Below, piece by piece: positions 7,742-61,450 of a stretch of DNA of 64,000 nt (positions are counted from its first letter, which is position 1; every line of letters begins with the position of its first letter). Position numbers and translations under genes: made by a program. Under the pieces are notes generated by a model, which saw nothing but the letters and a program-made list of their open reading frames with translations, did not search any database and was not told the origin of the DNA. Origin of the DNA: Candidatus Omnitrophota bacterium (GTDB lineage Bacteria > Omnitrophota > Gorgyraeia > Duberdicusellales > 4484-171); contig JAAEQW010000297.1 of the NCBI GenBank assembly GCA_024231025.1, forward strand, positions 14,851 through 78,850, in the 5' to 3' direction.

Positions 7742-8146
7742 ATGGTAAAATTAGAAATTTCTCAGATTATTATTGACGAAGGTAAAAGTGAACAAGTTAT
7801 TGTGCTTAATGAGTGCGATGGCCCTCGACGTTTACCGATTGTTCTAGGAAGCGCTGAAGCTTATGCGATTAGAGCTCATTTAAGCGGAGTAATTACACGA
7901 CGGCCGCTTACGCATGATCTAATGTATTCTTTTTTGAACACTATGGAAATTGAGTTAGAAAAAGTGATTATTGATAAATTAGTTGATAACACTTTTCATG
8001 CAAAGATCTATTTAATAACAAAAGATGATACCCTTAAAGTGGTGGACGCTAGGCCTTCTGATGGCATTGCTTTAGCGGTAAGAACCTCTTCGCCGATTTT
8101 TGCCGAGGAAAGCATTTTTGATCAATTGTCGAAAAAAGCGCAATGA
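7742..8146 (+). CDS. bifunctional nuclease domain protein (DUF151/BFN)
   Basis: 134 aa with the RPLTHDL hallmark and overall BFN-like layout. 4-nt overlap with cca. Confidence 0.65.
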   Translation: MVKLEISQIIIDEGKSEQVIVLNECDGPRRLPIVLGSAEAYAIRAHLSGVITRRPLTHDLMYSFLNTMEIELEKVIIDKLVDNTFHAKIYLITKDDTLKVVDARPSDGIALAVRTSSPIFAEESIFDQLSKKAQ

Positions 8147-9573
8147 ACCTATCTACTAATCTCAAAAAAATTCCTTATCTTGAGCAGGTGTCTCTAATTG
8201 CTTCGCGTAGAAAAACTACCGTTTGGCTTGTCGGTGGTTTTTTAAGGGATATTTACCTAAAGAAAAAGAAGGATTATATTGATTTTGATTTTTGTGTGGA
8301 AAATAAAACCCGTAGCTTAGCTTGTGATTTTGCCAAAAAAATAGAGGCAAAATTTATTGTATTAGACAAACAGCAGCAAAGTTATCGTGTAGTGAAAAAA
8401 TTGGCTAATAAAATCTACACTTACGATTTTACTGCCCTTAGGGGGGTGGATTTTAAAGATGACCTTTCATTGCGTGATTTTTCAATTAACACACTGGCAA
8501 TTGATCTAACCTCTAAAAACAAAAGAATAATTGATTACTATGGCGGGCGCAATGATCTTAAAAGTGGTATTATTCGTATTGTTCAAAAAAGAGTTCTCCT
8601 AGATGACCCATTAAGGATACTGAGAGGATTTTCTTTTATGGCTAATTACCGATTCAGAATTGAAGCAAAAACCATTAAAGAGATCACCCGTTGTAAGAAA
8701 CATCTTAGTAAAATTTCCGGTGAAAGAGTAGGGTGCGAACTGATGAAAATTTTTGCTGCGGACAATTGTTTTGCGGCAATTAAAAAGGCTGATGCTCTTG
8801 GGGTGCTTGATGCACTTATTCCGGATATCAGTAAGTGCAGGGGGGTTATACAAGGGGGGTATCACCACTTGGATGTTTGGAAGCATTCCCTTGAAACTCT
8901 TCGTCAGTTTGAAATTTTGCAGCATAAAATTTTTAATGACCACAAAGATGTTGCCAAATACATCAGTGAGGATTTAGCTCAAGGCAGAAAAAGAAGCCAG
9001 ATTATAAAATTGGCATGTCTTTTGCATGATATTGGTAAGCCAGTAGCAAAAAAAAAGAAAGACAAAAAAACTATTTTCCACAAACATGAAAAAATTGGCC
9101 GTGATCTGATTACCAAGATAGCATATAATTTACGCCTCTCTTCTAAAGAAACAGAAACTTTAAAACGATTAATATTTTGGCACCTTCGCCCCGGGTATTT
9201 AGCTGATCAAATTACACCGTCAAAGAGGGCGGTGTATCGTTTTTTTCGTGATACAGACATTGACGGTGCAGCGGTAATTTTATTATCTCTGGCAGATTGG
9301 CGAGCAACGCGTGGACCATTGACTGATTACGCAAAAAGGCGCCGGCATGAAAAAATTATGATTGGATTAGTTGACTGGTATTTCGCTGATAAAAAGAAAA
9401 AGCCATTAGTTAGGATTATCGATGGTTATGGCTTAATGAAGAAATTCAATCTTTTACCCTCGCCGTTAATTGGTAAAATCCTAAAAAAAGTTGATGAAGA
9501 ATACGCTTTAGGTCATATTTCTTCAAAAACACAAGCCTACGCTATTGCTAGAAAACTCATTGGAAAACAGTAG
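8143..9573 (+). CDS. cca: CCA tRNA nucleotidyltransferase with C-terminal HD phosphohydrolase domain
   Basis: Head domain GGFLRD...IDFDF (DxD) and RDFTINTLA. HD domain HHLDVWKHS / LLHDIGKP. Confidence 0.8.
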   Translation: MNLSTNLKKIPYLEQVSLIASRRKTTVWLVGGFLRDIYLKKKKDYIDFDFCVENKTRSLACDFAKKIEAKFIVLDKQQQSYRVVKKLANKIYTYDFTALRGVDFKDDLSLRDFSINTLAIDLTSKNKRIIDYYGGRNDLKSGIIRIVQKRVLLDDPLRILRGFSFMANYRFRIEAKTIKEITRCKKHLSKISGERVGCELMKIFAADNCFAAIKKADALGVLDALIPDISKCRGVIQGGYHHLDVWKHSLETLRQFEILQHKIFNDHKDVAKYISEDLAQGRKRSQIIKLACLLHDIGKPVAKKKKDKKTIFHKHEKIGRDLITKIAYNLRLSSKETETLKRLIFWHLRPGYLADQITPSKRAVYRFFRDTDIDGAAVILLSLADWRATRGPLTDYAKRRRHEKIMIGLVDWYFADKKKKPLVRIIDGYGLMKKFNLLPSPLIGKILKKVDEEYALGHISSKTQAYAIARKLIGKQ

Positions 9574-9599
9574 CAAGGGGGGGGCAATGCATGTTATTT

Positions 9600-9648
9600 T
9601 ATACCTTTTAGGGTATAAAGTATGGTGTTTTATACCTTTTAAGGTATA
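9600..9648 (+). promoter_or_regulatory. two palindromic operators TATACC-N6-GGTATA (predicted HipB binding sites), with a third half-site at 9672-9677
   Basis: tataccttttagggtata (9600-9617) and tataccttttaaggtata (9631-9648) are near-identical inverted repeats immediately upstream of the HTH gene. Confidence 0.45.
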
Positions 9649-9664
9649 ATTTTTTCAAAAAAGA

Positions 9665-9693
9665 TTGAAATTATACCCTATATGTGATATATT
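9665..9693 (+). promoter_or_regulatory. sigma70-like promoter of the hipBST operon (TTGAAA-17-TATATT), with a TATACC half-site in the spacer
   Basis: -35 ttgaaa at 9665-9670 and -10 tatatt at 9688-9693. The ATG follows about 10 nt later, so the mRNA would be nearly leaderless. Confidence 0.35.
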
Positions 9694-9702
9694 TGTGTTG
9701 TT

Positions 9703-9930
9703 ATGAAGTCAATTAGCTTAAATTCACATGCATTAAATATTTCTTCTCAAATAAAAAAGTTGAGAAAAAGTAATAAGTTGACTCAAATTGAATTTGCTAA
9801 ACGCGCTGGAGTTGGTTTACGTTTCTTAAGAGAGCTCGAAAATGGTAAAATAACAGTTAGGATGGATAAACTTATGCAAGTCTTGGATTTTTTGGGATAT
9901 CATTTAGAATTAAAGAAGAACGAATACTGA
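9703..9930 (+). CDS. hipB: XRE-family HTH DNA-binding protein, HipB-like
   Basis: 75 aa with a KLRKSNKLTQIEFAKRAGVGLRFLRELENGK helix-turn-helix. First gene of a tight three-gene operon with HipA-fragment genes. Confidence 0.7.
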   Translation: MKSISLNSHALNISSQIKKLRKSNKLTQIEFAKRAGVGLRFLRELENGKITVRMDKLMQVLDFLGYHLELKKNEY

Positions 9931-9936
9931 TACATT

Positions 9937-10263
9937 ATGGATGCATTAAGAAAAGCTCGGGTATTTTATAGAAATGAATTGGCGGGCTATATTTCAGAAA
10001 TACAGAGTGGCTATGTTTTTCAATATGATTATGAATTTTTGAAAAAAAACATTTCAATTTCAGCATCTTTACCTTACAGAGAAGAGCCTTATCATTCAAA
10101 AGAATTATTTCCTTTTTTTAAAGGACTTCTTCCAGAAGGATGGTATTTAAGTATTGTAAGCGCTACGCAAAAGGTTGATAGCAAAGATTCCTTTGGTTTA
10201 TTATTGGCGAGTGCCAATAGTGATACGATCGGTGCAGTTACCGTGACAAAGGTGGAAGAATAA
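9937..10263 (+). CDS. hipS: HipS-like protein (stand-alone HipA N-terminal subdomain)
   Basis: 108 aa. FKGLLPEGW and SDTIGAVTV match the HipA N-subdomain motifs (FDNLLPEG, GRDCVGAV). Stop is 1 nt before the kinase gene. Confidence 0.7.
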   Translation: MDALRKARVFYRNELAGYISEIQSGYVFQYDYEFLKKNISISASLPYREEPYHSKELFPFFKGLLPEGWYLSIVSATQKVDSKDSFGLLLASANSDTIGAVTVTKVEE

Positions 10264-10264
10264 A

Positions 10265-11134
10265 ATGAACAAAAAGCTATTTAGAGAAATGTTTAATTCC
10301 TCTAAGTGCCCAATCATAAATTTTAGTTTGAGGGATATGTCGCAAAAGGCGCAAGAATTGGCAGGTAAGCTTTCTATTTCTGGTGTTCAACCTAAGTTAT
10401 CGGTCAAGTTGGATAAGAAAAGTAATGAATTAATCCCTGTGGCCCAAGGCGGAGAATATATTTTGAAACCACAAACCTTTACTTTTTTAAATATCCCAGA
10501 AAATGAACAATGCTGCATGGATATTGCCGAGAGTTTGGGTGTATCTATTCCGCTTCATTGCTTGATTCCCTTAAAGGATGATAGTCTTGCTTATGTGGTC
10601 AAGAGATTTGATAGGGAAAAAAGCATAAAAATCCATCAGGAAGACTTTACGCAAATTCTCGAAGAAACAGATAAGTATAGAGGGTCGGTAGAACAAATAG
10701 GTCGAAAAATAAAAGAAAAATCATCCGCACCAGGTTATGATGCGCAATTATTTTTTGAAATGGTTGTTCTTAATTTTATTCTTGGTAATGGTGATGCTCA
10801 CTTAAAAAATTATTCGCTTTTATATAGAGATAAAGATAATGTTCGCCTAACACCCGCTTATGATATTGTATGCTCAAAACTGGTTCTTCCCAATGAGGAA
10901 GATTCGGCTATCGCCATTAATGGCAAAAAAAATAGATTAAAGATAGAGGATTTTAATGAGTTGGCTGAATATTTAAGTGTTCCTTTAAAAGTTCGGTACG
11001 AAAAGTTTGAAAATAAATTTACTGCTATGAGAGAAATTATAAATTGTTCTAGTATTGCAAAGGAAAAACAGCAGCAATTTCTTGAAATAATAAGCGAAAG
11101 ATTATCCCGTTTAGGGTTATCAAATGATAACTAG
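10265..11134 (+). CDS. hipT: HipT-like Ser/Thr kinase (HipA C-terminal kinase core lacking the N-subdomain)
   Basis: 289 aa. Gly-rich loop LSISGVQPKLS has the SIS motif characteristic of HipT. Catalytic NGDAHLKNYS (HipA D..H.KN) and PAYDIV. No N-terminal HipA subdomain. Confidence 0.75.
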   Translation: MNKKLFREMFNSSKCPIINFSLRDMSQKAQELAGKLSISGVQPKLSVKLDKKSNELIPVAQGGEYILKPQTFTFLNIPENEQCCMDIAESLGVSIPLHCLIPLKDDSLAYVVKRFDREKSIKIHQEDFTQILEETDKYRGSVEQIGRKIKEKSSAPGYDAQLFFEMVVLNFILGNGDAHLKNYSLLYRDKDNVRLTPAYDIVCSKLVLPNEEDSAIAINGKKNRLKIEDFNELAEYLSVPLKVRYEKFENKFTAMREIINCSSIAKEKQQQFLEIISERLSRLGLSNDN

Positions 11135-11203: not shown

Positions 11204-12187
11204 ATGTTTAATTTTGGTAAATCGAAGGAAAAATTTTTTTCACCAATAAGACAGGCAAGTGTTGTAGTTAATGGTATTGAAGTCTCTGTTGTTCAGGGGG
11301 ACATTACTGAAATTGATACCCAAGTGATAGTTAATGAGGCAAATAATCGTCTTTACATGGAGGATGGTCTTGCTGCGATAATTAAAAATAAAGGCGGCGC
11401 AATAATTGAAGAATCAGCCAAAAAACAAGCCCCGATTAAAGTTGGAGATGTTATTCTAACTACTGCCGGAGCGTTAAAGGCCGACTATATTATTCATGCT
11501 GCAACGACTGGCCTCAGTGCGAAAATTACTGATTCGATTATCCGAAATGCGACTTATCGTTCGTTACTTGCTGCTCACAAAGAAAAGATTGAATCTATCG
11601 CATTTCCGGTTTTAGGGCGTGAGTCAGGTGACCTTTCTTATGAGGTGGTATCAAAGTTGATGGCCCAGGAGGCTTTTCGTTATATTAAGGCAGTGGCATC
11701 ACCCACCATAACAAAAATAGTGTTTGTCTCATATTCAGAAGATGTTTTTGATGTTTTTAAGCAGAATATATGTGATTATCTTGAACATTTAACTCATCCC
11801 GGGCCTTTTGTTGTTGTTGATGGGATAGTTGAATATCAAGGTGGGATAGTAATGATTAAGCGTAGCAATCCTCCGTTTGGCTATGCGCTTCCTGGCGGAT
11901 TTGTAGAGTACGGTGAAAGTGTTGAAAAAAGTGTTGCGCGGGAAGTAAAAGAGGAAACAAGTCTTAATTTTACGGATATTAAGCAATTCAAGGTTTACTC
12001 AGATAGCGAGCGCGATCCGCGCTTTCATACGGTATCGATTGTTTTTGTTGGTAAGGGTCAAGGCACCTTAAAGGCTGCTTCTGATGCTAAAGATGCTTTT
12101 GTGGTTAAACTAGATTCCTTTCCTGAGGGTATTGTTTTTGATCATACAAAGATAATTGAAGATTACCTTGCTTCTAAGAAAACTTGA
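11204..12187 (+). CDS. Macro domain - NUDIX hydrolase fusion protein (ADP-ribose processing)
   Basis: N-terminal half has Macro motifs (VNEANNRL...GGAI, GDVILTTAGALKADYIIHAATTG, SIAFPVLGRESGDLS). C-terminal half has the Nudix box GGFVEYGESVEKSVAREVKEETSL. Confidence 0.75.
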   Translation: MFNFGKSKEKFFSPIRQASVVVNGIEVSVVQGDITEIDTQVIVNEANNRLYMEDGLAAIIKNKGGAIIEESAKKQAPIKVGDVILTTAGALKADYIIHAATTGLSAKITDSIIRNATYRSLLAAHKEKIESIAFPVLGRESGDLSYEVVSKLMAQEAFRYIKAVASPTITKIVFVSYSEDVFDVFKQNICDYLEHLTHPGPFVVVDGIVEYQGGIVMIKRSNPPFGYALPGGFVEYGESVEKSVAREVKEETSLNFTDIKQFKVYSDSERDPRFHTVSIVFVGKGQGTLKAASDAKDAFVVKLDSFPEGIVFDHTKIIEDYLASKKT

Positions 12188-12364: not shown

Positions 12365-14290
12365 ATGGGCGACAATATAGTATATAAAATTCTTCGCAAG
12401 CATCTTGTTTCGGGAGATTTAGTACCCGGTCAGGAAGTTGGGATAAAGATCGATCAGACATTAACTCAAGATGCTACAGGCACGATGGCTTATTTGCAGT
12501 TTGAAGCAATGGGCATTGATCGCGTGAAAACTGAACTCTCCGTAAGCTATGTTGATCATAATACTATTGGGCAGGGGTTTGAAAACGCCGACGATCATAA
12601 ATATTTGCAAAGTGTAGCTGCAAAATACGGTGTTTATTTTTCTCGAGCGGGCAATGGTATATGCCATCAGGTTCATCTGGAAAGATTTGCTAAGCCGGGG
12701 AAAACCTTACTCGGTAGTGATAGCCATACTCCTACTGGTGGAGGTATTGGAGCGATTGCTATTGGGGCAGGTGGTCTTGATGTTGCGTGCGCAATGGGAG
12801 GGGGTGCATTTTATCTGGTAGCACCTGAAGTAATTAAGGTCGAGTTAACTGGAAAGCTTCGTGATTGGGTATCGGCTAAAGATGTTATTCTGCATTTATT
12901 AGGTATTCTTTCTACAAAGGGTAACGTTAATAAAGTAATTGAATATAGCGGAGAAGGCCTAAAAACACTTTCTGTGCCTGGGCGGGCAACGATTACCAAT
13001 ATGGGTGCTGAAACAGGCGCTACTACAAGTATTTTTCCTTCTGATGAAGTAACTAAACAATTTTTGACTGCGCAAAATAGAGCGGATGATTTTTGTCCAC
13101 TTGTGGCTGATGAAGGTGCTAAGTATTGCAAGGTAATAAAGATTAATTTGTCAGAAGTTGTTGCGATGGCTGCTTTGCCTCATTCACCTGGCAATGTTGT
13201 TACGGTAAAAGAAATTGCCGGTAAAAAAGTAGATCAAGTTGCAATTGGAAGTTGTACCAACGGATCATTAAAAGATCTTACAATCGTTGGTGAAATATTG
13301 GCCGGTAAAACAATACATCAAGGGCTTTCAGTTATTGTTTCTCCTGGTTCGCGGCAGGTTTTTTCTATGATATCGGCCGATGATACTTTAAATAATATAA
13401 TTAATTCCGGTGCTAGGATAATGGAGCCGACTTGTGGATTTTGTATCGGTAGTGGGCAGTCACCATGCACTGATGGAATATCAGTGCGAACAAACAATCG
13501 CAATTTTTGTGGTCGTAGCGGTACTGAGTCAGGACAAATATATCTGGTATCTCCTCAAATTGCAGCATTAGCTGCGATTAACGGTGAATTTGTTGATCCA
13601 TTTTCTGCCCAAGAAAATTATCCTCAGGTTAGCAATGCTGAGCATTTTTACGTTGATGATCGCATGATTATTCCTCCTCCCAATGATCCTTGTGGTGTTG
13701 AGATTTTTCGCGGTCCAAATATCGGTCAGCCACCAACAAATATTGCCCTTGTCGATAGTTTATCTGGAGAAATCCTTGTAAAAGTTGGTGACAAGATTAC
13801 AACCGACCATATCATGCCTGCCGGGCCAAGATTAAAGTATCGCTCTAATATTGATAAGTATTCAGAGTTTGTGTTTGAGGGGGTTGATTCGCAATTTGCG
13901 GTTAATGCAAAAAAATTACGCGATCAAAAAAAATCTGTATTTATCTTAGCCGGGGAAAGTTATGGTCAAGGTTCAAGTAGGGAGCATGCGGCAATGTGCC
14001 CGATGTATTTGGGGGTAAGGGCCGTGATGGCAAAGTCATTTGAAAGAATCCATATAACCAATCTAATTAATTTCGGTATTTTACCGCTAACCTTTATTAA
14101 TGCCGGCGATTATGAATTGCTGCAAAAAGGATTACTTATTCAAATAAATAATATCATTGAATGTTTAAATAACAATAACAGCATTACTGTTTTAAGTGGC
14201 GACATTAAGATAGAAATGAATTGTACACTTTCCTTACGGCAAAGACAAATCGTCCAAGCCGGTGGGCTATTAAATTATACTCGACAGTGA
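12365..14290 (+). CDS. aconitase-family hydratase, fused large + swivel domains (Aquifex/archaeal-type putative aconitate hydratase)
   Basis: 641 aa. N-terminal DQTLTQDATG and Fe-S Cys region (SCTNGS, CGFCIG). C-terminal swivel motif GESYGQGSSREHAA. Confidence 0.75.
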   Translation: MGDNIVYKILRKHLVSGDLVPGQEVGIKIDQTLTQDATGTMAYLQFEAMGIDRVKTELSVSYVDHNTIGQGFENADDHKYLQSVAAKYGVYFSRAGNGICHQVHLERFAKPGKTLLGSDSHTPTGGGIGAIAIGAGGLDVACAMGGGAFYLVAPEVIKVELTGKLRDWVSAKDVILHLLGILSTKGNVNKVIEYSGEGLKTLSVPGRATITNMGAETGATTSIFPSDEVTKQFLTAQNRADDFCPLVADEGAKYCKVIKINLSEVVAMAALPHSPGNVVTVKEIAGKKVDQVAIGSCTNGSLKDLTIVGEILAGKTIHQGLSVIVSPGSRQVFSMISADDTLNNIINSGARIMEPTCGFCIGSGQSPCTDGISVRTNNRNFCGRSGTESGQIYLVSPQIAALAAINGEFVDPFSAQENYPQVSNAEHFYVDDRMIIPPPNDPCGVEIFRGPNIGQPPTNIALVDSLSGEILVKVGDKITTDHIMPAGPRLKYRSNIDKYSEFVFEGVDSQFAVNAKKLRDQKKSVFILAGESYGQGSSREHAAMCPMYLGVRAVMAKSFERIHITNLINFGILPLTFINAGDYELLQKGLLIQINNIIECLNNNNSITVLSGDIKIEMNCTLSLRQRQIVQAGGLLNYTRQ

Positions 14291-28751: not shown

Positions 28752-29639
28752 ATGGAAGCTTATCTCGAAGCATTTATTGATTATTTAAAGGTAGAAAAAG
28801 GGTTGTCTAAAAATTCAATTCTTGCTTACAATCAAGATTTGAAAAAATATGCTGATCATCTAAACGATAAAAATATAGTTAAGCCTGCTAAAATAGTACA
28901 AAAAGATGTAACTGATTTTTTATTTCTTCTTAGAAAGAATATTTCTCCAACCAGTATATCGCGAATATTATCAACAATTAAAAGTTTTCATAAATTCTTA
29001 TTACGCGAAAAAATAACAAATTCTGATCCAACGAATCTTATCCAGGCACCAAAGGTAGAAAAAAAGATACCATCTTTTTTGACTTTTAACGAGGTGAGCA
29101 AAACACTTAAGGCTTTAAATCTAAAAAATCTACGTGGATTACGTGATCGGGCAATTTTAGAGCTTATGTATGCAGCAGGGTTAAGGGTATCAGAGGCGTC
29201 GTCGCTTAGGATTTCTGATTTAAACTTTGAAGTAGGCTTTATTAAGTGTCGAGGAAAGGGGTCAAAGGAGAGGATTGTTCCCTTAGGCGGTGTGGCATCG
29301 CATTTTTTACAGCGATACATTAATGAAGCGCGTCCTAAATTATTAAAACAGAAGGCTTCGATTTATTTATTTTTAGCACAGGGCGGTCGGCGGCTGGGCA
29401 GGCAAAGCATTTGGAAGATGATCAAGAAGGTTGTTAAAAAGTGTGGTATTCGTAAAAAGGTTAGCCCACATACCTTGAGGCATTCTTTTGCTACGCACCT
29501 TTTAGAAAGAGGAGCCGATCTGCGCAGCGTTCAGGAGATGCTGGGGCATTCTAGTATAACTACTACTCAGATTTACACCCACATTAATCAAACAAGGCTG
29601 AAAGAGATACATATGAAATTTCATCCTCGAGCAAAATAA
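28752..29639 (+). CDS. xerD: tyrosine recombinase XerC/XerD
   Basis: 295 aa. Catalytic R..HTLRHSFATHLL..G.DL..VQEMLGH...TTQIYTH (R-H-R-Y). Confidence 0.8.
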   Translation: MEAYLEAFIDYLKVEKGLSKNSILAYNQDLKKYADHLNDKNIVKPAKIVQKDVTDFLFLLRKNISPTSISRILSTIKSFHKFLLREKITNSDPTNLIQAPKVEKKIPSFLTFNEVSKTLKALNLKNLRGLRDRAILELMYAAGLRVSEASSLRISDLNFEVGFIKCRGKGSKERIVPLGGVASHFLQRYINEARPKLLKQKASIYLFLAQGGRRLGRQSIWKMIKKVVKKCGIRKKVSPHTLRHSFATHLLERGADLRSVQEMLGHSSITTTQIYTHINQTRLKEIHMKFHPRAK

Positions 29640-29643
29640 AATT

Positions 29644-30909
29644 ATGGAAAAAAGAATCAAAAAACTTTCTTTGAATTTTAGAAAACTTTTAAAAGAGGCT
29701 TCTGCTCAGTCTGCATCATTGGGCTATGAGCTTTATTTAGTGGGGGGTGTGGTTCGTGATCTTTTACTAAAAAAATCTGTTTTTGATTTGGATCTTGTTG
29801 TCGAAGGCGATGCTATAGAGTTAGTTCGTCATTTAAAGCGTGATTATAATAAGCATCATACTTTTGGTACAGCGACTGTTTATTTTGATGAACATAAAAT
29901 TGATTTTGCAACTGCCCGACTTGAAAGTTACTCTCATCCGGGAGCTTTGCCGAGAGTGAAACCGGCGCCCTTAGCGGATGATCTTAAGCGCCGTGACTTT
30001 ACAATAAATGCTATGGCAATTAGCCTTAATAAGGGCAGTTACGGCCAGCTAATCGATCTCTATAGTGGGTTATCTGATTTGAAGAAGGGGGTAGTTAGAT
30101 TCTTGCATAACAATAGCTTTACAGATGATCCAACTAGAATATTGCGAGCAATAAGATTTGAACAACGTTTTAAATTTAGAATAGAAAAGAATACTTTAAA
30201 TCACATGGAAGCAGCGATATCAAATGGTGCGATACTTTCTGTTAATCCGCATCGCTTGCGTGATGAGTTAATTCTTCTTTTGAAAGAGCCCAAGCCATAT
30301 CGTTACATAAAACGAGTTAATAAGCTAGTTGGGTTTTCATTCTTGTCGCCTAAGAGTAGAAAAGCGTTAATTGTCGATTATGAACTGATTAGGCGTGTTC
30401 AAACAGCGCTATCTTTTTATAAAAAGAAATTCAGAAAGCATAGGAAAATAGATGATTGGGTGGTCTATCTAGCTGCGATTATTCTGTCAAAATCGGCTGG
30501 TAAAATAGAAGAGTTTATTCATTGTTTTGGTTTAAGAAAAAGTGAGAGATTGAGAATTCTTTCGATAAAGAAAAATATCTCTAAAATAAAACTACTCAAC
30601 AGGCAACTTAAACCGGCAAGTTTATATCGGATAATGGAGCCGTTAAGCTTTGAGAGTTTGATATTTTTTTACGCGTATTATCCCCAAAAAATGATACGAA
30701 AGAACATCATCTATTTTATGGATAAGCTTGCGACTGTGACACTGAAGATTAGAGGTAAGGACCTAATAAAGCTCGGTATCGCACCGTCGCGCCTATACAG
30801 TGAGGTCATGGGTAAAACTTTAAATGCTAAAATAGATAAATCGCTTAAGAGCAAGCGTGATGAGATCAGCGAAGCGCGTAAGATAATCCGTAGGTTAAAA
30901 ACTAAATAA
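29644..30909 (+). CDS. nucleotidyltransferase of the tRNA-NT/poly(A) polymerase family, no HD domain (CC-adding enzyme or PcnB-like)
   Basis: GGVVRDLLL...FDLDLVV head domain, RDFTINAMA. 421 aa with no HD motif. Second paralog in the window besides cca. Confidence 0.65.
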   Translation: MEKRIKKLSLNFRKLLKEASAQSASLGYELYLVGGVVRDLLLKKSVFDLDLVVEGDAIELVRHLKRDYNKHHTFGTATVYFDEHKIDFATARLESYSHPGALPRVKPAPLADDLKRRDFTINAMAISLNKGSYGQLIDLYSGLSDLKKGVVRFLHNNSFTDDPTRILRAIRFEQRFKFRIEKNTLNHMEAAISNGAILSVNPHRLRDELILLLKEPKPYRYIKRVNKLVGFSFLSPKSRKALIVDYELIRRVQTALSFYKKKFRKHRKIDDWVVYLAAIILSKSAGKIEEFIHCFGLRKSERLRILSIKKNISKIKLLNRQLKPASLYRIMEPLSFESLIFFYAYYPQKMIRKNIIYFMDKLATVTLKIRGKDLIKLGIAPSRLYSEVMGKTLNAKIDKSLKSKRDEISEARKIIRRLKTK

Positions 30910-49360: not shown

Positions 49361-50170
49361 GTGGTTAGAAAAAAAAATAAGAAGAAAAAAAATACGCGTA
49401 ATAAAAAATCCAAAATTGACTTTAATCCCAAAATCTTTATTGCTATTTTTTTAATATTTTTAGGAATAGGCGCTACTTTTTATTTGGGAAAAATCATTTA
49501 TGAATCGAAAGTTTTTACGGTTAAGAAAATTGACTCAAACGTAAAACTCGATGATGACTTGATTGCTTCAGTTAAGGGGCGTTCGCTGTTTACCGTCAAC
49601 ACGAGCTATCTTTATAAGCGCATTTCTAGTAATAATGTTGAATATAAGGACGTTTCTATTGTGAAAAAATTTCCAGATACATTACGAATCGAAATTGTTA
49701 AACGAGTTCCATTCGCGCAGATAAAGGCTGAGAAGTTTTTTTTGATTGATCGTGATGGTGTTATTCTTAATAGCGGTCAACGCACTGCTTTCGATAGCCT
49801 AATAGCGATAGAGCTAGCTGCTCGGTCTAATCCATTGCATCGCGGTGCTCACATCAAAGAGAAACAATTAGATATTGCCTTTGTTTTAATGGATGAATTA
49901 GTTAAAAATAGATTTTTTAAAAAAAATCCAGTTACACTAATAAATATAACATCTAAACAGGCATTGTACTTTAACGTTGAAGCATTAGCTTCTAACAGTC
50001 AAGAAGAGGAATTTAGCGTAAAAGTGAAAGTGATAGTAGGCGAAGATGATTTTGCGCATAAATTGCATGTTTTTGAAAGTTTAATAAATAATAAGATAAA
50101 AGCCGATCTTCATTTAGTTAAATATATTGATTTAAGATACAAAAAGGCTTATATCGGATACAAAAGGTAG
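49361..50170 (+). CDS. ftsQ: cell division protein FtsQ/DivIB (POTRA)
   Basis: Basic N-terminus, one TM, POTRA-like region. GTG start with SD AAGGAGG 8 nt upstream. Located between ddl and ftsA. Confidence 0.6.
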   Translation: MVRKKNKKKKNTRNKKSKIDFNPKIFIAIFLIFLGIGATFYLGKIIYESKVFTVKKIDSNVKLDDDLIASVKGRSLFTVNTSYLYKRISSNNVEYKDVSIVKKFPDTLRIEIVKRVPFAQIKAEKFFLIDRDGVILNSGQRTAFDSLIAIELAARSNPLHRGAHIKEKQLDIAFVLMDELVKNRFFKKNPVTLINITSKQALYFNVEALASNSQEEEFSVKVKVIVGEDDFAHKLHVFESLINNKIKADLHLVKYIDLRYKKAYIGYKR

Positions 50171-50178
50171 TTAATTTT

Positions 50179-51375
50179 GTGGTGACCAAGCAAAAGAGTG
50201 TAAGGGGGTCTAATAGAGTGAAGGGGATTTGTGGTATAGATATTAATACTGATCGAATTTTTATATCTTTTGCTGCTGAGAAAAAATCTTCTCCTGTTTT
50301 TCGAGGAGAGATCGAAGTCGCAATACCGTTGAAAGAGCCAAATATTTTAGAATTTTTGAAAGAGCATGTCCAGGAGATCGTGCAACAAATAAGAGATAAC
50401 GAGAAAACTTACGGACTCAAAGTTGAAAAAGTATATCTTAAACTGCCATGGGGCATGGAAACTGTTAAAACTTATGAGGAAACAATTTCCCTGAAGGCGC
50501 GAAAAAAAATTGCCCCTAAAGACATATCTTTTGCTAAAAAAGCTTTAGAGACTGCAGCGTTAGATTGGGATGATTTTTGTGTGCATCATTTTCCGGTAAC
50601 TTATGGCATTGAAGGCAAAGTAGTAAACCATTTGCCGATAGGGTTGTGGACAAGGAAGATAAGGCTGAAATCTAATTTAGTTGTTATCAAGGACAAATTA
50701 CGTCGGGAAACTAAAGATATGTTTGATAATTTAGAAATGGGTTTTGAAGGTTTTGTGGCACCAGCAGTGAGTGCTTTTTCGGGATCGTTTATTGATATCG
50801 ACAACAGTGGCAAGCAGGCTGTGGTATCAGTAGGGTATGATCAATCGCACTTGGTTATTGTAACCGAGGGGGTAATTACGATAGTTAAAAGTTTTGATTT
50901 TGGTTTAAAGGGAGCCATTTCGATTTTGGCAGATAAATTTTCTTTACCATTTTCTTTGGCTCAGAAAATATTTGATCGATATGTATTTTTGCAAGAGCGG
51001 CCCATCGCAGCTGCAGAATCGTTTAATAAGGAAGTGAGCGTTAAAAGTGGTGATTCATATATTAATTTAAGTATAAATAGTTTAAATACGACACTAATCC
51101 AATATATCGAAAATAACCTACAAAGCATTTTAGGGTGCTTAGATTCATCGGGTGTCACGGTATCCTTTTTAGGGCGTTTAAACGCGAAAGAAGGATTTCG
51201 AAATATTCTTGAAAAGTTTGTTTCTTTTAATATTGCACCTTTACCTTATGCAGTTAATCTTTCTTCTTCTTTTGGATGTCTTCGTTATGGGGCGTTATCT
51301 TTTCTTGAAAAGGATCGTCGACGAAAAAGAACACTAATGGAGCGTTTAATGAAGGTGTATAAGGAATATTTTTAA
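50179..51375 (+). CDS. ftsA: cell division protein FtsA (divergent actin-like ATPase)
   Basis: GICGIDINTDRIF N-terminal actin fold. Position after ftsQ. Divergent; start codon uncertain (GTG). Confidence 0.6.
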   Translation: MVTKQKSVRGSNRVKGICGIDINTDRIFISFAAEKKSSPVFRGEIEVAIPLKEPNILEFLKEHVQEIVQQIRDNEKTYGLKVEKVYLKLPWGMETVKTYEETISLKARKKIAPKDISFAKKALETAALDWDDFCVHHFPVTYGIEGKVVNHLPIGLWTRKIRLKSNLVVIKDKLRRETKDMFDNLEMGFEGFVAPAVSAFSGSFIDIDNSGKQAVVSVGYDQSHLVIVTEGVITIVKSFDFGLKGAISILADKFSLPFSLAQKIFDRYVFLQERPIAAAESFNKEVSVKSGDSYINLSINSLNTTLIQYIENNLQSILGCLDSSGVTVSFLGRLNAKEGFRNILEKFVSFNIAPLPYAVNLSSSFGCLRYGALSFLEKDRRRKRTLMERLMKVYKEYF

Positions 51376-51411: not shown

Positions 51412-53355
51412 ATGGAAAAAGACCAAATCTTAGAAGATCTTTTTAAAAGTTTTAGGGTTGCGATTAACAATGCGACCCTTTATTTTGATCAACACCCAAT
51501 TTTTTTGCATGCAGTGTGCGATCTTAAAGAAAAGATTGATAAGATTTTTTTAATCTTTGATCCACTGGTTATTGGCATTACGCCTAAATCGTTGCTGGTC
51601 AACGACACAGTTTTAGAGAATAGCAAGGTTTACCATGAGCTTGCCGGCACACTCCATCGACGTAAAATCAAACGCATAACAATTGAGAAAGATGTATCTG
51701 TCCACGAAATTGCATTGCTTCTTTCAAAGCTTGGCTTATCTGCAAAAGACGCAATTAAAAGTGGTGGATTTAATGCAATCGAAATTCCTCATATTATCGT
51801 TGAGAACTTGGATTACATGCAATTTTTAAAAGAAGGCGGTAAACAGCAAAAAGATATATGGTCGGTTTTGCTTGCAAAGGCAGTAAAGGATAATAATAAA
51901 AGTGAAATTAGCGAGTTTGTTGATAATTTTGATGTTATTGCTAATAAGTTTCAAGCTGTAGATTTTATTGAAAATGATGAAATAAGAAGCAATTTGCATA
52001 CCTTTTTAGAGCATTTACATACTAATGATCATGATCAATTCAAAAAGTGCACAAAAGAGGTGATAAAGCTTATTTTAAGTGACAAAAATATTCCGAAAGA
52101 TATAAATTTAGATAATATAAAAAGTTTTTTTGATAAGTTTGAAACAGGTGAGCTGTCGAATACTTTGTGGGAGCAAGTAGTTACAGATGAGAAATTTGAT
52201 TTCTTAACTTTTAATTTATTTTCTCAGCTTGTTAATCAAGAAAAGCATAATGAAATTGCTCTTTCTTTGGCCAGTAAGATTACAAAGGGTGATCTTTTGA
52301 AAAACAATCCGCAAGCAGTTTCGCGTATACGGAAATTGTTCTCTTCTGACATCGATTCTGATGTGTCAAAAGTTTACAGGAAAACATTATCATCTATTTT
52401 GCAAGACACTCTTATCGAAGGAGAGCGCTCTATCGATCGCAAGCAAGTTAATTGCAATTATCGATATATTTTGCTTAATTTGTTTATTTTGGAGAGGAGG
52501 CTGACCTGGTTGAAGTTGATATCAGAAAGAATTCTAAGTGAATGGAATAGGGCAATGGAAGAAAATGATGCAGAGTACTTGCAACTTTTTATAGAGGCAT
52601 TAGACAAAAAGAAACGTCTTGATCCGAGTCTTGAGTCAGCGTTCGTTGATACTGAACGAGAAATATTTGGATTAGTCGAAGAAAAAGTTCTAAAGGGTGA
52701 AGTAACCAGTTGTTTTGAAGTTTTTTATAATACATCATCCAAAAGTTTTATTGGAATAACGCCTTATACCGCAGCGATTTTTAAAGACAGAAAGATTAAT
52801 CGCTCGATAATGCAGCTATACTTCAAATTTTTTGGATATCAAGTTGATCATTTTAAGAGAGAGATGAACCGCAATCGGCATGATTTAGAGTTTATCCGAG
52901 AAATTATTGATAGCGTCAAAACTATTGATTCTCCTTTTAGCCTTGAAGTACTGAAGTTTATTTTTAATTTTTCTAATATTCTTTTGAAAGTTGATGCAAT
53001 CAAAGCAATGCGAGAGCTAGCAGCTTACTCATTGTATGATGGAGATTTACTACTTTCTTTAATTAAAAAAAGGAACATTTTCTTGAAAAGGGAAGCACTG
53101 GCTGTTATTGCTACGGATGAGGCGTTAACTTCTCAGGCGGTGAAAGAGCTTTTTAATCAATCTAATTTTTTTGGATTTCGTAATAATATATTTTTGGAAA
53201 ACATAAGAATGGCTGAGGATGTTAAATTTTTTGGTGCAAGAGAATGTTTAATTTCCTTAAGCAGAGATAAGTCATTTTGGCGCAAAGAGGTTGCCAAGGG
53301 GGCAAAACAACTTTTAGAAGATTGGGATAGAGGCAAAAAAAATGAGCGTAACTGA
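51412..53355 (+). CDS. hypothetical protein; N-terminal domain paralogous to the N-domain of the downstream HD-GYP protein, no HD domain
   Basis: 647 aa. The N-terminal ~100 aa (ATLYFDQHPIFL..., LVIGITP..., SVHEIALLLSKL) aligns with residues 1-100 of the 53342 protein. No HD or GYP motifs found. Confidence 0.6.
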   Translation: MEKDQILEDLFKSFRVAINNATLYFDQHPIFLHAVCDLKEKIDKIFLIFDPLVIGITPKSLLVNDTVLENSKVYHELAGTLHRRKIKRITIEKDVSVHEIALLLSKLGLSAKDAIKSGGFNAIEIPHIIVENLDYMQFLKEGGKQQKDIWSVLLAKAVKDNNKSEISEFVDNFDVIANKFQAVDFIENDEIRSNLHTFLEHLHTNDHDQFKKCTKEVIKLILSDKNIPKDINLDNIKSFFDKFETGELSNTLWEQVVTDEKFDFLTFNLFSQLVNQEKHNEIALSLASKITKGDLLKNNPQAVSRIRKLFSSDIDSDVSKVYRKTLSSILQDTLIEGERSIDRKQVNCNYRYILLNLFILERRLTWLKLISERILSEWNRAMEENDAEYLQLFIEALDKKKRLDPSLESAFVDTEREIFGLVEEKVLKGEVTSCFEVFYNTSSKSFIGITPYTAAIFKDRKINRSIMQLYFKFFGYQVDHFKREMNRNRHDLEFIREIIDSVKTIDSPFSLEVLKFIFNFSNILLKVDAIKAMRELAAYSLYDGDLLLSLIKKRNIFLKREALAVIATDEALTSQAVKELFNQSNFFGFRNNIFLENIRMAEDVKFFGARECLISLSRDKSFWRKEVAKGAKQLLEDWDRGKKNERN

Positions 53356-54682
53356 TAAAATCAAAGTTTTTTTTAGAGATCTGATGTCGTCGTTGCAAAG
53401 CGCTCAAATTTATACTACTTGTCACCCAAAATTCAATGAGTCGTTAGATAAAACGTATAGCCAGCTTAAAGACATCCTTAGTTCTAGAGAGCACTTTACT
53501 ATTGGTATTGTTGGAGATGAGATTGCTTTCGAGTCGGAAATATTTTTTGATTTAAGCAATAATATGAGACAAGTTGTTAGTTATTTAAAAGAAAAAGGTG
53601 TTGAAAAACTGTCGTTTTGTCGTGGAGTTAAAAGGGACGAGTTAATCAAATTTCTAGAATTTTTAATGATATCGAAGGGAGATTTTAATACAGAAACAGA
53701 AGAGTATTTTTTAACTATGGGAATTCGTAATATTTCTGCAGGTAAGCTTAGCGCCGAGGCAGGTGAACCGATCAGTAGCGTAAAAAGTGCGATAAACTAT
53801 CTTAAACGTTACGAAGGATCGATGGACAAAATTGCTGACTCGTTAACGAAAATGCTTGATAGTGGCACAATTGATTCCTTAGAATTGGGCTTTACTGTCA
53901 CCAATGTGATGGAAAATTTAATTGGTAGATATCATGAATTTTTTAAACTAACTACAGTTAAGCAATATGATTTAGGAACATTTCGACATATTCTGAATGT
54001 TTCTGTTTTGTCGATGCATTTTGCCGTTAAATTGGGATTTGTTCATAAGGACTGTCTTGATATAGGGATTGCGGCCCTCTTTCATGATATCGGCAAGCTT
54101 TATGTGTCGCGCAAGATAATACAAAAATCGGATAAATTGGCTGAAGAAGAGTTTGATAAGATGCGTAGCCACACTCTTTTGGGGGCTGAGATTCTTTTGA
54201 AGAATGTGGATAGTTTGGGAACGTTACCGGTAATCGTTGCCTTTGAACACCATTTGCGATATAACTTAAAGGGCTATCCGAAAGTACCTTTCGCTAAAGC
54301 GCCGCACGTAGCTTCGTTGCTTATTTCTGTGTGTGATGTGTATGATGCGCTTATACAAAGAAGAAGCTATAAAAGAAGTTATCCGCCAGAAATGATCTAT
54401 AACCTTATGATGCGGGAAAGAGGAAATCTCTTTGATCCAAAGTTATTGGATATGTTTTTTAACATAATGGGAGTTTGGCCAATCGGAACAATCGTTGAGC
54501 TAAGTGATGCAACAGTTGCCATTGTTCGGGAAATTAACGAATCAGATAAGTTTTCTCCCAAGGTGGAAGTCGTTCATCCTTCGAAATCTGGAATTATGGA
54601 CCTAGGGAAGATGAAAAATATTAACATCGAAAAATCGCTGAATCCCTTTGCGGAAGGTAAGCAATTTGTTGACTTAGTTTAG
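53342..54682 (+). CDS. HD-GYP domain phosphodiesterase with N-terminal domain of unknown function (DUF3391-like)
   Basis: HD domain LFHDIGKLYV. HHLRYNLKGYPK contains the GYP signature. 14-nt overlap with the upstream paralog. Confidence 0.75.
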   Translation: MSVTDKIKVFFRDLMSSLQSAQIYTTCHPKFNESLDKTYSQLKDILSSREHFTIGIVGDEIAFESEIFFDLSNNMRQVVSYLKEKGVEKLSFCRGVKRDELIKFLEFLMISKGDFNTETEEYFLTMGIRNISAGKLSAEAGEPISSVKSAINYLKRYEGSMDKIADSLTKMLDSGTIDSLELGFTVTNVMENLIGRYHEFFKLTTVKQYDLGTFRHILNVSVLSMHFAVKLGFVHKDCLDIGIAALFHDIGKLYVSRKIIQKSDKLAEEEFDKMRSHTLLGAEILLKNVDSLGTLPVIVAFEHHLRYNLKGYPKVPFAKAPHVASLLISVCDVYDALIQRRSYKRSYPPEMIYNLMMRERGNLFDPKLLDMFFNIMGVWPIGTIVELSDATVAIVREINESDKFSPKVEVVHPSKSGIMDLGKMKNINIEKSLNPFAEGKQFVDLV

Positions 54683-55233: not shown

Positions 55234-56400
55234 ATGAGAGCTAATCACAGAAAAGACTTAGAAAATATTGCTCGGCAAATGATCCTTGTTCATAATGCTG
55301 ATGCGCTTATTGAGTTGGTTCTGCGTACAATTGTTAGTAATTTAAGAGTTACACATGCTGGAATTCTTATTTACGACAAAACCAGAGAAGAATATGTTGT
55401 AAAAATCTCCAAAGGACGTCATGGTTTTAAAATTCCTTCCGGTTTCGTTAAAGTTACTAAAAAAAATCCGCTGATAGAATACTTCACTAATAAAAAGAGA
55501 AATTTTCCTAAAGATTTTATTCTTTTCACTAAGATTGACGAATATATTCGTAATTCAAAAAAAAGCCGGGCAACAAGAGCTTTTCTTCAAGATTTGAAGG
55601 TTAATTTAAGTTTTCATCAAGCGCGAGTTTGCGTGCCTGGGTTTTTTGGTAAAGACTTAATTGGGATTCTCTTTCTTGGGGATAAAGTCAGCAAAAAGAG
55701 GTTTTCAGAAGGGGAGCTGGGGTTTTTGTCAGTTCTTGCCTCGGATGTTGTTATGGCCTTAAAAAATGCTTGGCTGGTTGAAGATATAAGCACTCAGCTA
55801 GCGAATAATAAGCGTTTATTCTTGCAAATGGTAGCAACTTTAGCGTCTAGCATTGAAGCTAAGGATAAATATACGATGGGCCATACTGAACGGGTTATGG
55901 AATATTCTCTCGATATTGCTAATAAGATGAAGAATGAGAAAAATATTGTTGACTGGGGTAAATTTTTGGAAAATTTAAAGATATCAGCGCTCTTACATGA
56001 CATTGGTAAGATTGGGATACCAGAGAGCATTTTAAATAAACCCGATTCCTTAACCGACGAAGAACGAAAAGTTATTCGCCAACACCCTTTAATCGGGGTT
56101 AATATTTTAAAAAATGTTGATGAACTTGACGAAGCCCTTTTAGGAGTAAAATTCCATCATGAACGATACGATGGCAAGGGATATCCTTCCGGGTTGAGTG
56201 GTGAGGACATCCCTTTTATCGCTTCTGTGATCTCTCTTGCTGATGCTTTTGATGCGATGACTACCGATAGGCCGTATCGTAAGGCATTGTCATTAAGGGA
56301 GGCAGTTGCTGAAATTAAACGCAATAAGGGGAAGCAATTTGCCCCTGACGTCGTAGATGCTTTTTTAAAAGCTTATATTTCCAGAGATATCGAAAAATGA
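55234..56400 (+). CDS. GAF domain - HD-GYP phosphodiesterase
   Basis: N-terminal GAF-like region. HD-GYP: HTERVMEYS, LLHDIGKIGIP, HHERYDGKGYPSGL. Confidence 0.8.
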   Translation: MRANHRKDLENIARQMILVHNADALIELVLRTIVSNLRVTHAGILIYDKTREEYVVKISKGRHGFKIPSGFVKVTKKNPLIEYFTNKKRNFPKDFILFTKIDEYIRNSKKSRATRAFLQDLKVNLSFHQARVCVPGFFGKDLIGILFLGDKVSKKRFSEGELGFLSVLASDVVMALKNAWLVEDISTQLANNKRLFLQMVATLASSIEAKDKYTMGHTERVMEYSLDIANKMKNEKNIVDWGKFLENLKISALLHDIGKIGIPESILNKPDSLTDEERKVIRQHPLIGVNILKNVDELDEALLGVKFHHERYDGKGYPSGLSGEDIPFIASVISLADAFDAMTTDRPYRKALSLREAVAEIKRNKGKQFAPDVVDAFLKAYISRDIEK

Positions 56401-60246: not shown

Positions 60247-60375
60247 TAACCAATAACCAAGAAACAAGATGCAAATAATGACCAATAATCAATATTCAAT
60301 AATTAAACAATTTGTTGATTGGAATTTGGTGATTGGTTATTTTTTGGTTATTGTAACTTGTATCTTGATTATTTT
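60246..60375 (+). repeat. 'ataaccaa' intergenic repeat element, copy 2
   Basis: ccaataaccaagaaacaagatgcaaataatgaccaataatcaat...ttggttattgtaacttgtatcttgatt, homologous to 12194-12345. Confidence 0.6.
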
Positions 60376-60393
60376 TGGAAGGATAAATTAAGC

Positions 60394-60912
60394 ATGGTTC
60401 ACTTTTACATAGGCGATGGTAAGGGCAAAACTACTGCTAGTTTGGGGCTTGCCATTAGGGCGCATGGATGTGGCAAAAGGGTATATGTGGCCCAATTTCT
60501 AAAAGATAGTAGTTTTGTTTGCGGTGAAGCTAACGCCTTGAAAAGTTTGGGGGTTAAAATCGATCGGTTTGATGGGCAAAAGCACCCAATGTTTAGCAAG
60601 AATATCAAAGAAGATCACGAAAAAACCGAGCGCTCAATCGATGAAAGCTTAGATAAAATAGATAAAATTATTGCCGGCGGTGATTTTGATCTTATAATTC
60701 TTGATGAAATTCTAAATGCTTTAGCCGTAGGATTTATTAGTGTTAAAAGATTGGGAAGTTTTATCGACAATTCAAATGGTATAGAATTAATTTTTACCGG
60801 ATGCGATGCTCCCGCGGAATTAATAAAAAAAGCTGATTATGTTTCTTTCGTAACAAAAATAAAACACCCTTTCGATTTAAATGTTGCTGCCAGAAAAGGT
60901 GTGGAATTCTGA
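60394..60912 (+). CDS. cobO: cob(I)yrinic acid a,c-diamide adenosyltransferase (CobA/CobO/BtuR)
   Basis: VHFYIGDGKGKTTASLGLAIRA P-loop typical of BtuR/CobO. Internal ATG with SD GGAAGG was chosen over the ORF-track start. Confidence 0.8.
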   Translation: MVHFYIGDGKGKTTASLGLAIRAHGCGKRVYVAQFLKDSSFVCGEANALKSLGVKIDRFDGQKHPMFSKNIKEDHEKTERSIDESLDKIDKIIAGGDFDLIILDEILNALAVGFISVKRLGSFIDNSNGIELIFTGCDAPAELIKKADYVSFVTKIKHPFDLNVAARKGVEF

Positions 60913-61140: not shown

Positions 61141-61280
61141 AGGGGATAAAGGAAGCCAGAATACCTGTCGAAAAATTGGTTTCTGCGCCAATAATAGTTT
61201 ATTGATGCAGTCCCGTTCTAGCGGGAAGACTATCGAGGAATGAAGTCTAAACTTTTGTGGGACCAAGTAAGTAAGGGTGC

Positions 61281-61318
61281 ATCCCGCGTTGAGTGAAAGC
61301 TCGACGCGGGATTTTTTA
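61281..61318 (+). terminator. Rho-independent terminator of the riboswitch expression platform
   Basis: atcccgcgttgag-tgaaag-ctcgacgcgggat followed by tttttt. A second strong hairpin tcccgaac-gaag-ttcggga lies at 61329-61348. Confidence 0.55.
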
Positions 61319-61450
61319 ATGAGACTTTCCCGAACGAAGTTCGGGACTAGTCGAATGAATCCTGAGCGAGCGAAAGCGCAGCGTAGGGTTTTTTGTTATC
61401 ACTTATGTTTATTCCTCCATAAGAATAACAGCAAGAATAGGAGGTTTGAT

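Follow-up and report, generated by a model that had tools for sequence, protein, structure and literature searches.

Experimental knowledge of HipBST modules, in which a HipA-type kinase is divided between two proteins, comes from a few Gammaproteobacteria only, whose systems disagree on both target and autoregulation. The locus described here comes from a metagenome-assembled genome (MAG) of a Candidatus Omnitrophota bacterium (assembly GCA_024231025.1), where it takes up about 1.55 kb of the window – the whole stretch of 64,000 nucleotides that was analysed, part of contig JAAEQW010000297.1. Its three genes, hipB, hipS and hipT, very probably form a functional, horizontally mobile tripartite type II toxin–antitoxin module of the HipBST kind. 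Judged by its sequence, the locus is an intact, uncharacterised member of a known system type, annotated generically in GenBank, where the record of the identical HipT reads 'MAG: HipA domain-containing protein [Candidatus Omnitrophica bacterium]'. What is added here is the operator–promoter architecture, the boundaries of the cassette, direct evidence of its relocation and a caution about the target.

Escherichia coli K-12 HipBA, which belongs to the same kinase superfamily, likewise has an XRE-type HipB encoded upstream and multiple 18-bp palindromic operators. In E. coli hipBA these are four copies of TATCC-N8-GGATA, with the same 18-bp span as the TATACC-N6-GGTATA sites of the window but a different sequence. 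K-12 has a single kinase protein, HipA, which targets GltX and matches both HipS (E about 7e-3) and HipT (E about 4e-7) of the window, whereas here the kinase is spread over two proteins and the antitoxin, by homology, would be HipS rather than HipB.

Closer in organisation is the HipBST module of enteropathogenic E. coli O127:H6 (PDB 7ab3-7ab5), which has the split-HipA architecture and the S-I-S loop in common with this locus. Its HipT is longer, however (335 against 289 aa), as is its HipB (107 against 75 aa), whose N-terminal extension is missing from the window protein (PMC6581861); its hipB and hipS overlap by 16 nt, whereas the window genes do not overlap. In Legionella pneumophila (Lpg2368-2370; PDB 7vkb, 8ezr, 8ezt) the gene order is as here, HipB is minimal in both (a 76-aa chain in 8ezt against 75 aa), HipT aligns with the window protein over its whole length, and HipS and HipB match too, although identity to the Legionella proteins is only 34-42% and the host is a gammaproteobacterium rather than a member of the Omnitrophota. 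L. pneumophila HipB (HipB_Lp) binds its own promoter in electrophoretic mobility shift assays, and the operator sequence is not defined in the publications consulted on that system.

Gene organisation and family assignment

The three genes are co-directional, with intergenic gaps of 6 nt and 1 nt, and their reading frames were recovered exactly where the initial annotation had placed them, on the + strand (Table 1). The motifs that it had quoted are also there – FKGLLPEGW and IGAV in HipS, LSISGVQPK and GNGDAHLKN in HipT – and the profile search on which it had staked its claim gave significant HipA-family matches for both. HipS matches Couple_hipA (PF13657) at E = 4e-23 and TIGR03071 at E about 1e-23; HipT matches HipA_C (PF07804) at E = 3.9e-45, which is the sole Pfam domain in this protein. 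For HipB, a helix-turn-helix (HTH) protein, the corresponding matches are HTH_3 (E = 7.5e-12) and TIGR03070 couple_hipB (75.9 bits, above the curated cut-off of 71.65).

Comparison with solved structures places the break in the kinase. HipT aligns with L. pneumophila HipT (HipT_Lp; chains 8ezr_B/7vkb_A) at E = 1e-45 over residues 18-284, the C-terminal helices included, and with E. coli O127 HipT (7ab3_C) at E = 1.5e-21 over residues 16-203 only. Full-length HipA aligns to it only from HipA residue 165-193 onward, so that the window protein, colinear with HipT_Lp over 18-284, is without the N-subdomain 1 (about 100 aa) of HipA. It is HipS that matches, weakly, the first 105-113 residues of HipA, and among solved chains it matches H. 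influenzae HI_0666 (7czo_A, 7e-16), O127 HipS (7ab3_B, 7e-13) and L. pneumophila HipS (7vkb_B, 3e-12). The best solved match of HipB is HipB_Lp (8ezt_A, E = 4.4e-7).

At the level of BLASTP identity, HipT is 34.5% identical to the Legionella kinase over the full length and 30.5% identical to that of E. coli over residues 16-203; for HipS the values are 34% (HI_0666) and 32% (O127 HipS), and for HipB 42% (HipB_Lp). The HipBST architecture initially proposed is thus borne out by profiles, by the solved HipB, HipS and HipT chains, by residue mapping and by the occurrence of the triad in every related locus with room for it.

Functional residues

Residues were mapped by counting along the printed alignments, with the chain numbering of 7ab3_C taken as the residue numbering; the loop of that chain reads A57-I58-S59, consistent with the S57A construct (PMC10627512). 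The Gly-rich loop of the window HipT is S37-I38-S39-G40 (SISGVQPK spans residues 37-44), and S37-I38-S39 aligns with S57-I58-S59 of O127 HipT, in which S57 and S59 are the autophosphorylation serines and belong to the S-psi-S motif of the largest HipT group (PMC10627512). Autophosphorylatable serines are accordingly predicted at S37 and S39. Because the loop of HipT_Lp is S-V-Q, with the single phosphoserine S54 (PMC9325769), the window kinase joins a loop of the E. coli type to a sequence that on the whole resembles the Legionella one.

The catalytic Asp, for which the initial annotation had asked that an alignment be inspected, is present as D177 of GNGDAHLKN, opposite catalytic D210 of O127 HipT, and D200 (PAYD) aligns with the Mg-binding D233 (roles from PMC10627512). 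The loop serines, D177 and D200 are invariant in the 37 homologues of a protein search. In HipS, P66-E67-G68-W69 aligns with P62-E63-G64-W65 of the O127 protein, where W65 wedges beside the Gly-rich loop and is essential for antitoxin function (PMC10627512); PEGW is present in 73 of 77 related HipS.

Putative operators and promoter in the leader

The 129 nt that separate cca from hipB (9574-9702, with 9574 the first base past the cca stop codon) hold the putative regulatory sites. Perfect copies of TATACC-N6-GGTATA occur twice in the whole 64 kb, and both lie in this leader; with up to two mismatches allowed there are six matches against 1.53 expected – a number reached in none of 100 shuffles – and three of the six again fall in the leader. 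When 61 upstream regions were compared (the window and 60 related loci, some of them near-duplicates), at least one palindrome was found in 59 and at least two in 49, phased at about -31, -73, -104, -135 and -176 from the ATG. Sites equivalent to O1 and O2 of the window are kept across loci at about -104 and -73, and the O3 sequence recurs at -31 in many of them. Phased palindromes such as these would be the expected operator signature for an HTH protein.

The predicted promoter is conserved as well: the block TTGAAATTATACCC...TGTGATATAyT is kept at -38 in the related loci L001-L004 and in many others. As 9 nt separate the end of the -10 element from the hipB ATG and hipB lacks an upstream Shine-Dalgarno sequence, the hipBST transcript is probably leaderless or nearly leaderless, with a predicted start near 9700-9702. 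A Shine-Dalgarno sequence does precede hipT (AGGTGG at 10250-10255), and no intrinsic terminator was detected downstream of that gene.

Table 1. The hipBST cassette, its putative control sites and its neighbours, in window coordinates (position 1 is the first letter of the window).
Feature	Position	Strand	Description
hipB	9703-9930	+	75-aa XRE-family HTH protein, putative operon repressor
hipS	9937-10263	+	108-aa HipA N-subdomain-1 homologue, putative antitoxin
hipT	10265-11134	+	289-aa HipA_C kinase core, putative toxin
Mobile hipBST cassette	9586..11134	+	operators, promoter and three genes; no transposase or integrase
Operator-like palindrome O1, TATACCTTTTAGGGTATA	9600..9617	.	perfect TATACC-N6-GGTATA; putative HipB site
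Operator-like palindrome O2, TATACCTTTTAAGGTATA	9631..9648	.	perfect copy, 31 nt from O1
Degenerate operator O3, TATACCCTATATGTGATA	9672..9689	.	2 mismatches to palindrome; in promoter spacer and -10 region
Sigma-70-like promoter	9665..9693	+	TTGAAA, 17 nt, TGnTATATT (extended -10); 10/12 consensus matches, TG present
Bifunctional nuclease gene	7742-8146	+	BFN_dom E = 3e-34; between nrdR and cca
cca-type nucleotidyltransferase	8143-9573	+	476 aa; PolyA_pol + PolyA_pol_RNAbd + HD
Macro-NUDIX fusion	11204-12187	+	adjoins hipT side of cassette
Aconitase-family gene	12365-14290	+	641 aa, after Macro-NUDIX

Distribution and mobility of the cassette

Relatives of HipT are numerous. A database search returned 3,782 at E ≤ 1e-10, the best 120 of which are 71-84% identical, the named ones coming mostly from Omnitrophota and Aureabacteria MAGs; in a metagenome scan, at least 405 relatives were confirmed among the 600 pattern matches listed, and 80 metagenome loci were fetched for comparison. 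Upstream gene order is kept throughout, with hipS in all 73 loci that have room for it and hipB in all 64. No relative was found in a scan of viral contigs or in a search of phage genomes, and plasmid records held only relatives at 40% identity or less.

That the cassette, self-contained and about 1.55 kb long, moves as a unit is supported directly by comparison between loci. The related locus L001, whose HipT is 84% identical, is syntenic with the window along rpiB, the genes for serine hydroxymethyltransferase and dCMP deaminase, nrdR, cca and Macro-NUDIX and again along recG-rsmD-coaD-yceD-plsX, at 43-78% protein identity. There, cca directly adjoins Macro-NUDIX, so that the junction at which the cassette is inserted in the window is empty, and a hipBST cassette stands instead, inverted, on the other side of Macro-NUDIX. 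Protein identity between these two genomes is 78-84% for HipB, HipS and HipT, compared with 55-60% for cca, Macro-NUDIX and RecG.

With loci whose flanks are unrelated, the window shares DNA similarity from 9586-9600 to about 11113-11130; the mobile unit therefore consists of the operators, the promoter and the three genes, with no recombinase of its own. The flanks are diverse, the upstream neighbours forming 25 clusters for 28 loci and the downstream neighbours 29 clusters for 32 loci. In composition, too, the cassette stands apart: its GC content of 0.323 is the lowest in the window (mean 0.371), at the 0.5th percentile of equal-sized windows.

No transposase or integrase lies beside the cassette, and the only tyrosine recombinase (28752-29639, XerC/D-like) is 17 kb away. 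Since the window contains no tRNA genes and its sole Rfam match is a cobalamin riboswitch far from hipBST, there is no tRNA-type integration site. A search of genome contigs with the Macro-NUDIX neighbour for further empty sites gave only distant, non-syntenic matches.

Two features of the insertion region may be recorded in their own right. hipBST abuts Macro-NUDIX in both genomes (window 11204-12187, +; L001 6847-7860, -), on opposite sides and in opposite orientations, an adjacency that chance, a hotspot of insertion at this place or an inversion of the local DNA could each explain; the Macro domain itself gives a weak PADLOC match to DarG (E = 1.6e-7). In addition, the stretch from the cca stop codon (9571-9573) to where cassette homology starts on the left (about 9586) contains a tract of eight G residues (9577-9584), possibly a scar of the junction or a feature of the target site.

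Proposed mechanism, target and alternative roles

Homology with the systems of E. coli O127 and L. pneumophila suggests that HipB dimers bind the three phased TATACC-N6-GGTATA operators; as the promoter-proximal one lies between the -35 and -10 elements, binding there would repress the probably leaderless hipBST transcript. HipS, again by homology, would occupy on HipT the position that N-subdomain 1 takes in full-length HipA, with E67 and W69 set against the Gly-rich loop such that the loop is held inactive and the use of ATP is blocked. Upon loss of HipS, HipT would phosphorylate an essential protein by means of D177 and D200, and growth would arrest; autophosphorylation at S37 and S39 may tune the activity of the kinase.

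The target is most likely an aminoacyl-tRNA synthetase, the class of enzyme on which characterised Hip kinases act. The initial annotation had described HipT of such systems as a kinase of TrpS, which is correct for E. coli O127 and is supported by rescue assays for the HipTs of H. influenzae and T. auensis (PMC6581861), but does not extend to L. pneumophila. There, HipT toxicity is rescued by neither TrpS nor GltX, PheS is an unproven phosphoproteomic hit, and S54 autophosphorylation is dispensable for toxicity, unlike the situation in E. coli (bioRxiv 10.1101/2022.11.26.518041). Because identity of the window HipT to each of the two characterised HipTs is no more than 30-35%, which puts it at a roughly equal distance from them, somewhat nearer to that of Legionella, the TrpS assignment made in O127 cannot be transferred, and TrpS would be one candidate target rather than the default.

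It is possible, if doubtful, that the locus is a strict functional orthologue of O127 HipBST whose HipT specifically phosphorylates TrpS. The S-I-S double-serine loop is indeed of the O127 type (PMC10627512), and HipS is most similar to HI_0666 of H. influenzae, whose HipT is rescued by TrpS (PMC6581861); yet the kinase as a whole is closer to HipT_Lp, with its full-length alignment, than to the O127 protein, whose alignment stops at residue 203 of 289, HipT_Lp is the very kinase that TrpS and GltX fail to rescue, and substrate specificity is unreadable from sequence at 30-35% identity. We also put forward, tentatively, that the Omnitrophota-centred HipBST modules might constitute a third functional lineage, marked by an E. 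coli-type loop, a Legionella-type C-terminal region and about 30-35% identity to the characterised HipTs, carried as an autonomous 1.55-kb cassette in which hipB is leaderless and two to five HipB operators form a conserved array with a phasing of about 31 bp, and directed at a target that is neither TrpS nor GltX.

A main role in anti-phage abortive infection, as opposed to persistence or addiction, seems unlikely. On this account a phage cue would free HipT and translation would be shut down, which would suit a compact unit spreading horizontally into many chromosomal contexts, and Gerdes et al. (PMC8262856) suggest a part in phage defence for other families of Hip kinases. PADLOC does find matches to the candidate defence system PDC-M03A/B, but these are weak and partial rather than full-length (HipT residues 81-212, E = 8.5e-9; HipS residues 17-62, E = 1.8e-5); moreover, the cassette has no defence genes on either side in the window, and viral contigs and phage genomes yielded no relative.

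The case for a functional, mobile HipBST module also draws on the pattern of substitution. NG86 dN/dS ratios against three loci (0.09-0.12 for hipB, 0.07-0.16 for hipS and 0.10-0.15 for hipT) point to purifying selection on all three genes, each apparently maintained as a protein, although with dS at 0.7-1.9, near saturation, these values are approximate. This is one of several points that weigh against our interpretation. What is said of toxicity, of neutralisation by HipS, of DNA binding and of the target derives from homology at 30-42% identity, and since the two characterised systems disagree on the target and on the role of autophosphorylation, such details cannot be fixed. An AlphaFold2 model of HipT scored poorly (predicted local distance difference test 37, predicted template modelling score 0.22), because the 37-sequence alignment behind it, with sequences 71-84% identical, is too shallow, and it lends the HipS-HipT interface no structural support. 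Finally, the patterns used to retrieve the 80 metagenome loci include SISG[VI]QPKL, which biases the count of S-I-S loops among them, and several of these loci are near-duplicates.

That the cassette is instead a decayed or domesticated remnant, with a non-toxic kinase and genes that are neutral or a regulatory relic, is very improbable: such decay is a generic fate of chromosomal toxin–antitoxin loci, with nothing specific to this one, and the idea was rejected on the conservation of residues, the catalytic and regulatory ones being intact and invariant, and on the dN/dS of 0.07-0.16 per gene, with three full-length frames and conserved operators and promoter besides. Slighter still are the chances that HipT is exported and acts as an effector kinase on a host or prey cell, the role proposed for Legionella Lpg2370. 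This closest solved homologue (HipT_Lp) is reported as a Dot/Icm substrate (PMC9325769), and a homologue on a Legionella plasmid bears the label 'lpg2370 family Dot/Icm T4SS effector', but the window HipT shares only 34.5% identity with Lpg2370, neither a secretion system nor a signal is apparent in the vicinity of the locus, and a conserved operon with cognate antitoxin and repressor fits an intracellular toxin–antitoxin role.

Genomic context and other features of the window

The flanks are those initially described, with cca upstream and, downstream, the Macro-NUDIX fusion followed by the aconitase-family gene. So is the genome: AT-rich, at 37.1% GC, and diderm-like by virtue of the lipid A acyltransferase and TonB-dependent receptor encoded in the window. 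That hipBST is the only clear accessory island of the region, as was also proposed, broadly holds. Every other open reading frame (ORF) of 120 aa or more either has a housekeeping function or could not be annotated, and GC is lowest in the cassette; however, the bifunctional nuclease and aconitase-family genes, too, are missing from the syntenic 12.8 kb of L001 and are thus variable relative to the shared backbone. The functions encoded by the remaining ORFs include purine biosynthesis, fatty-acid synthesis, tRNA modification and aconitase/isopropylmalate-type enzymes, as well as the Xer-like recombinase, a dcw cell-wall cluster, lipid A functions, glycosyltransferases and the TonB-dependent receptor; a few ORFs are without a family match.

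Among the latter is a 647-aa ORF (51412-53355, +) that matches nothing in Pfam (best E = 0.028) or, at E ≤ 1, among PDB sequences. It directly follows ddl, ftsQ-like and weakly ftsA-like genes at the end of the dcw cluster, the usual place of ftsZ. The 269-aa ORF at 49361-50170 encodes a divergent FtsQ (POTRA_1 5e-6, FtsQ_DivIB_C 1e-4); the 398-aa ORF after it (50179-51375, +), in the ftsA position, has marginal similarity to FtsA (SHS2_FTSA E = 0.012; PDB FtsA 7q6f E = 0.45). Downstream of the 647-aa ORF are two HD_5 (HD-GYP-type) proteins (53342-54682 and 55234-56400).

Elsewhere, the window contains a second nucleotidyltransferase with a PolyA_pol head (29644-30909, +), a paralogue of the cca-type gene at 8143-9573 (+); it is 421 aa long, has the head domain only and adjoins the Xer-like tyrosine recombinase gene. 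The cobalamin riboswitch (RF00174, 60978-61186, +, 90.5 bits) lies between a gene for a CobA/CobO/BtuR-family corrinoid adenosyltransferase (60319-60912) and that for the TonB-dependent receptor (61277-63508), likely a B12-regulated uptake gene. On another hipBST-carrying Omnitrophota contig (L002, 1021-4596), the large subunit of ribonucleotide reductase encoded next to the cassette has an intein with a LAGLIDADG endonuclease domain.

Significance

The locus leaves the current picture of Hip kinases unchanged and is, in principle, ordinary. It does, however, belong to an abundant hipBST clade, found in uncultivated Omnitrophota and their neighbours, and its unusually clear operator–promoter layout, together with the comparative evidence of movement, would make it a convenient third reference system beside those of the Gammaproteobacteria – one that may be used to ask what sets the choice of target by HipT and how a three-gene cassette free of any recombinase relocates.

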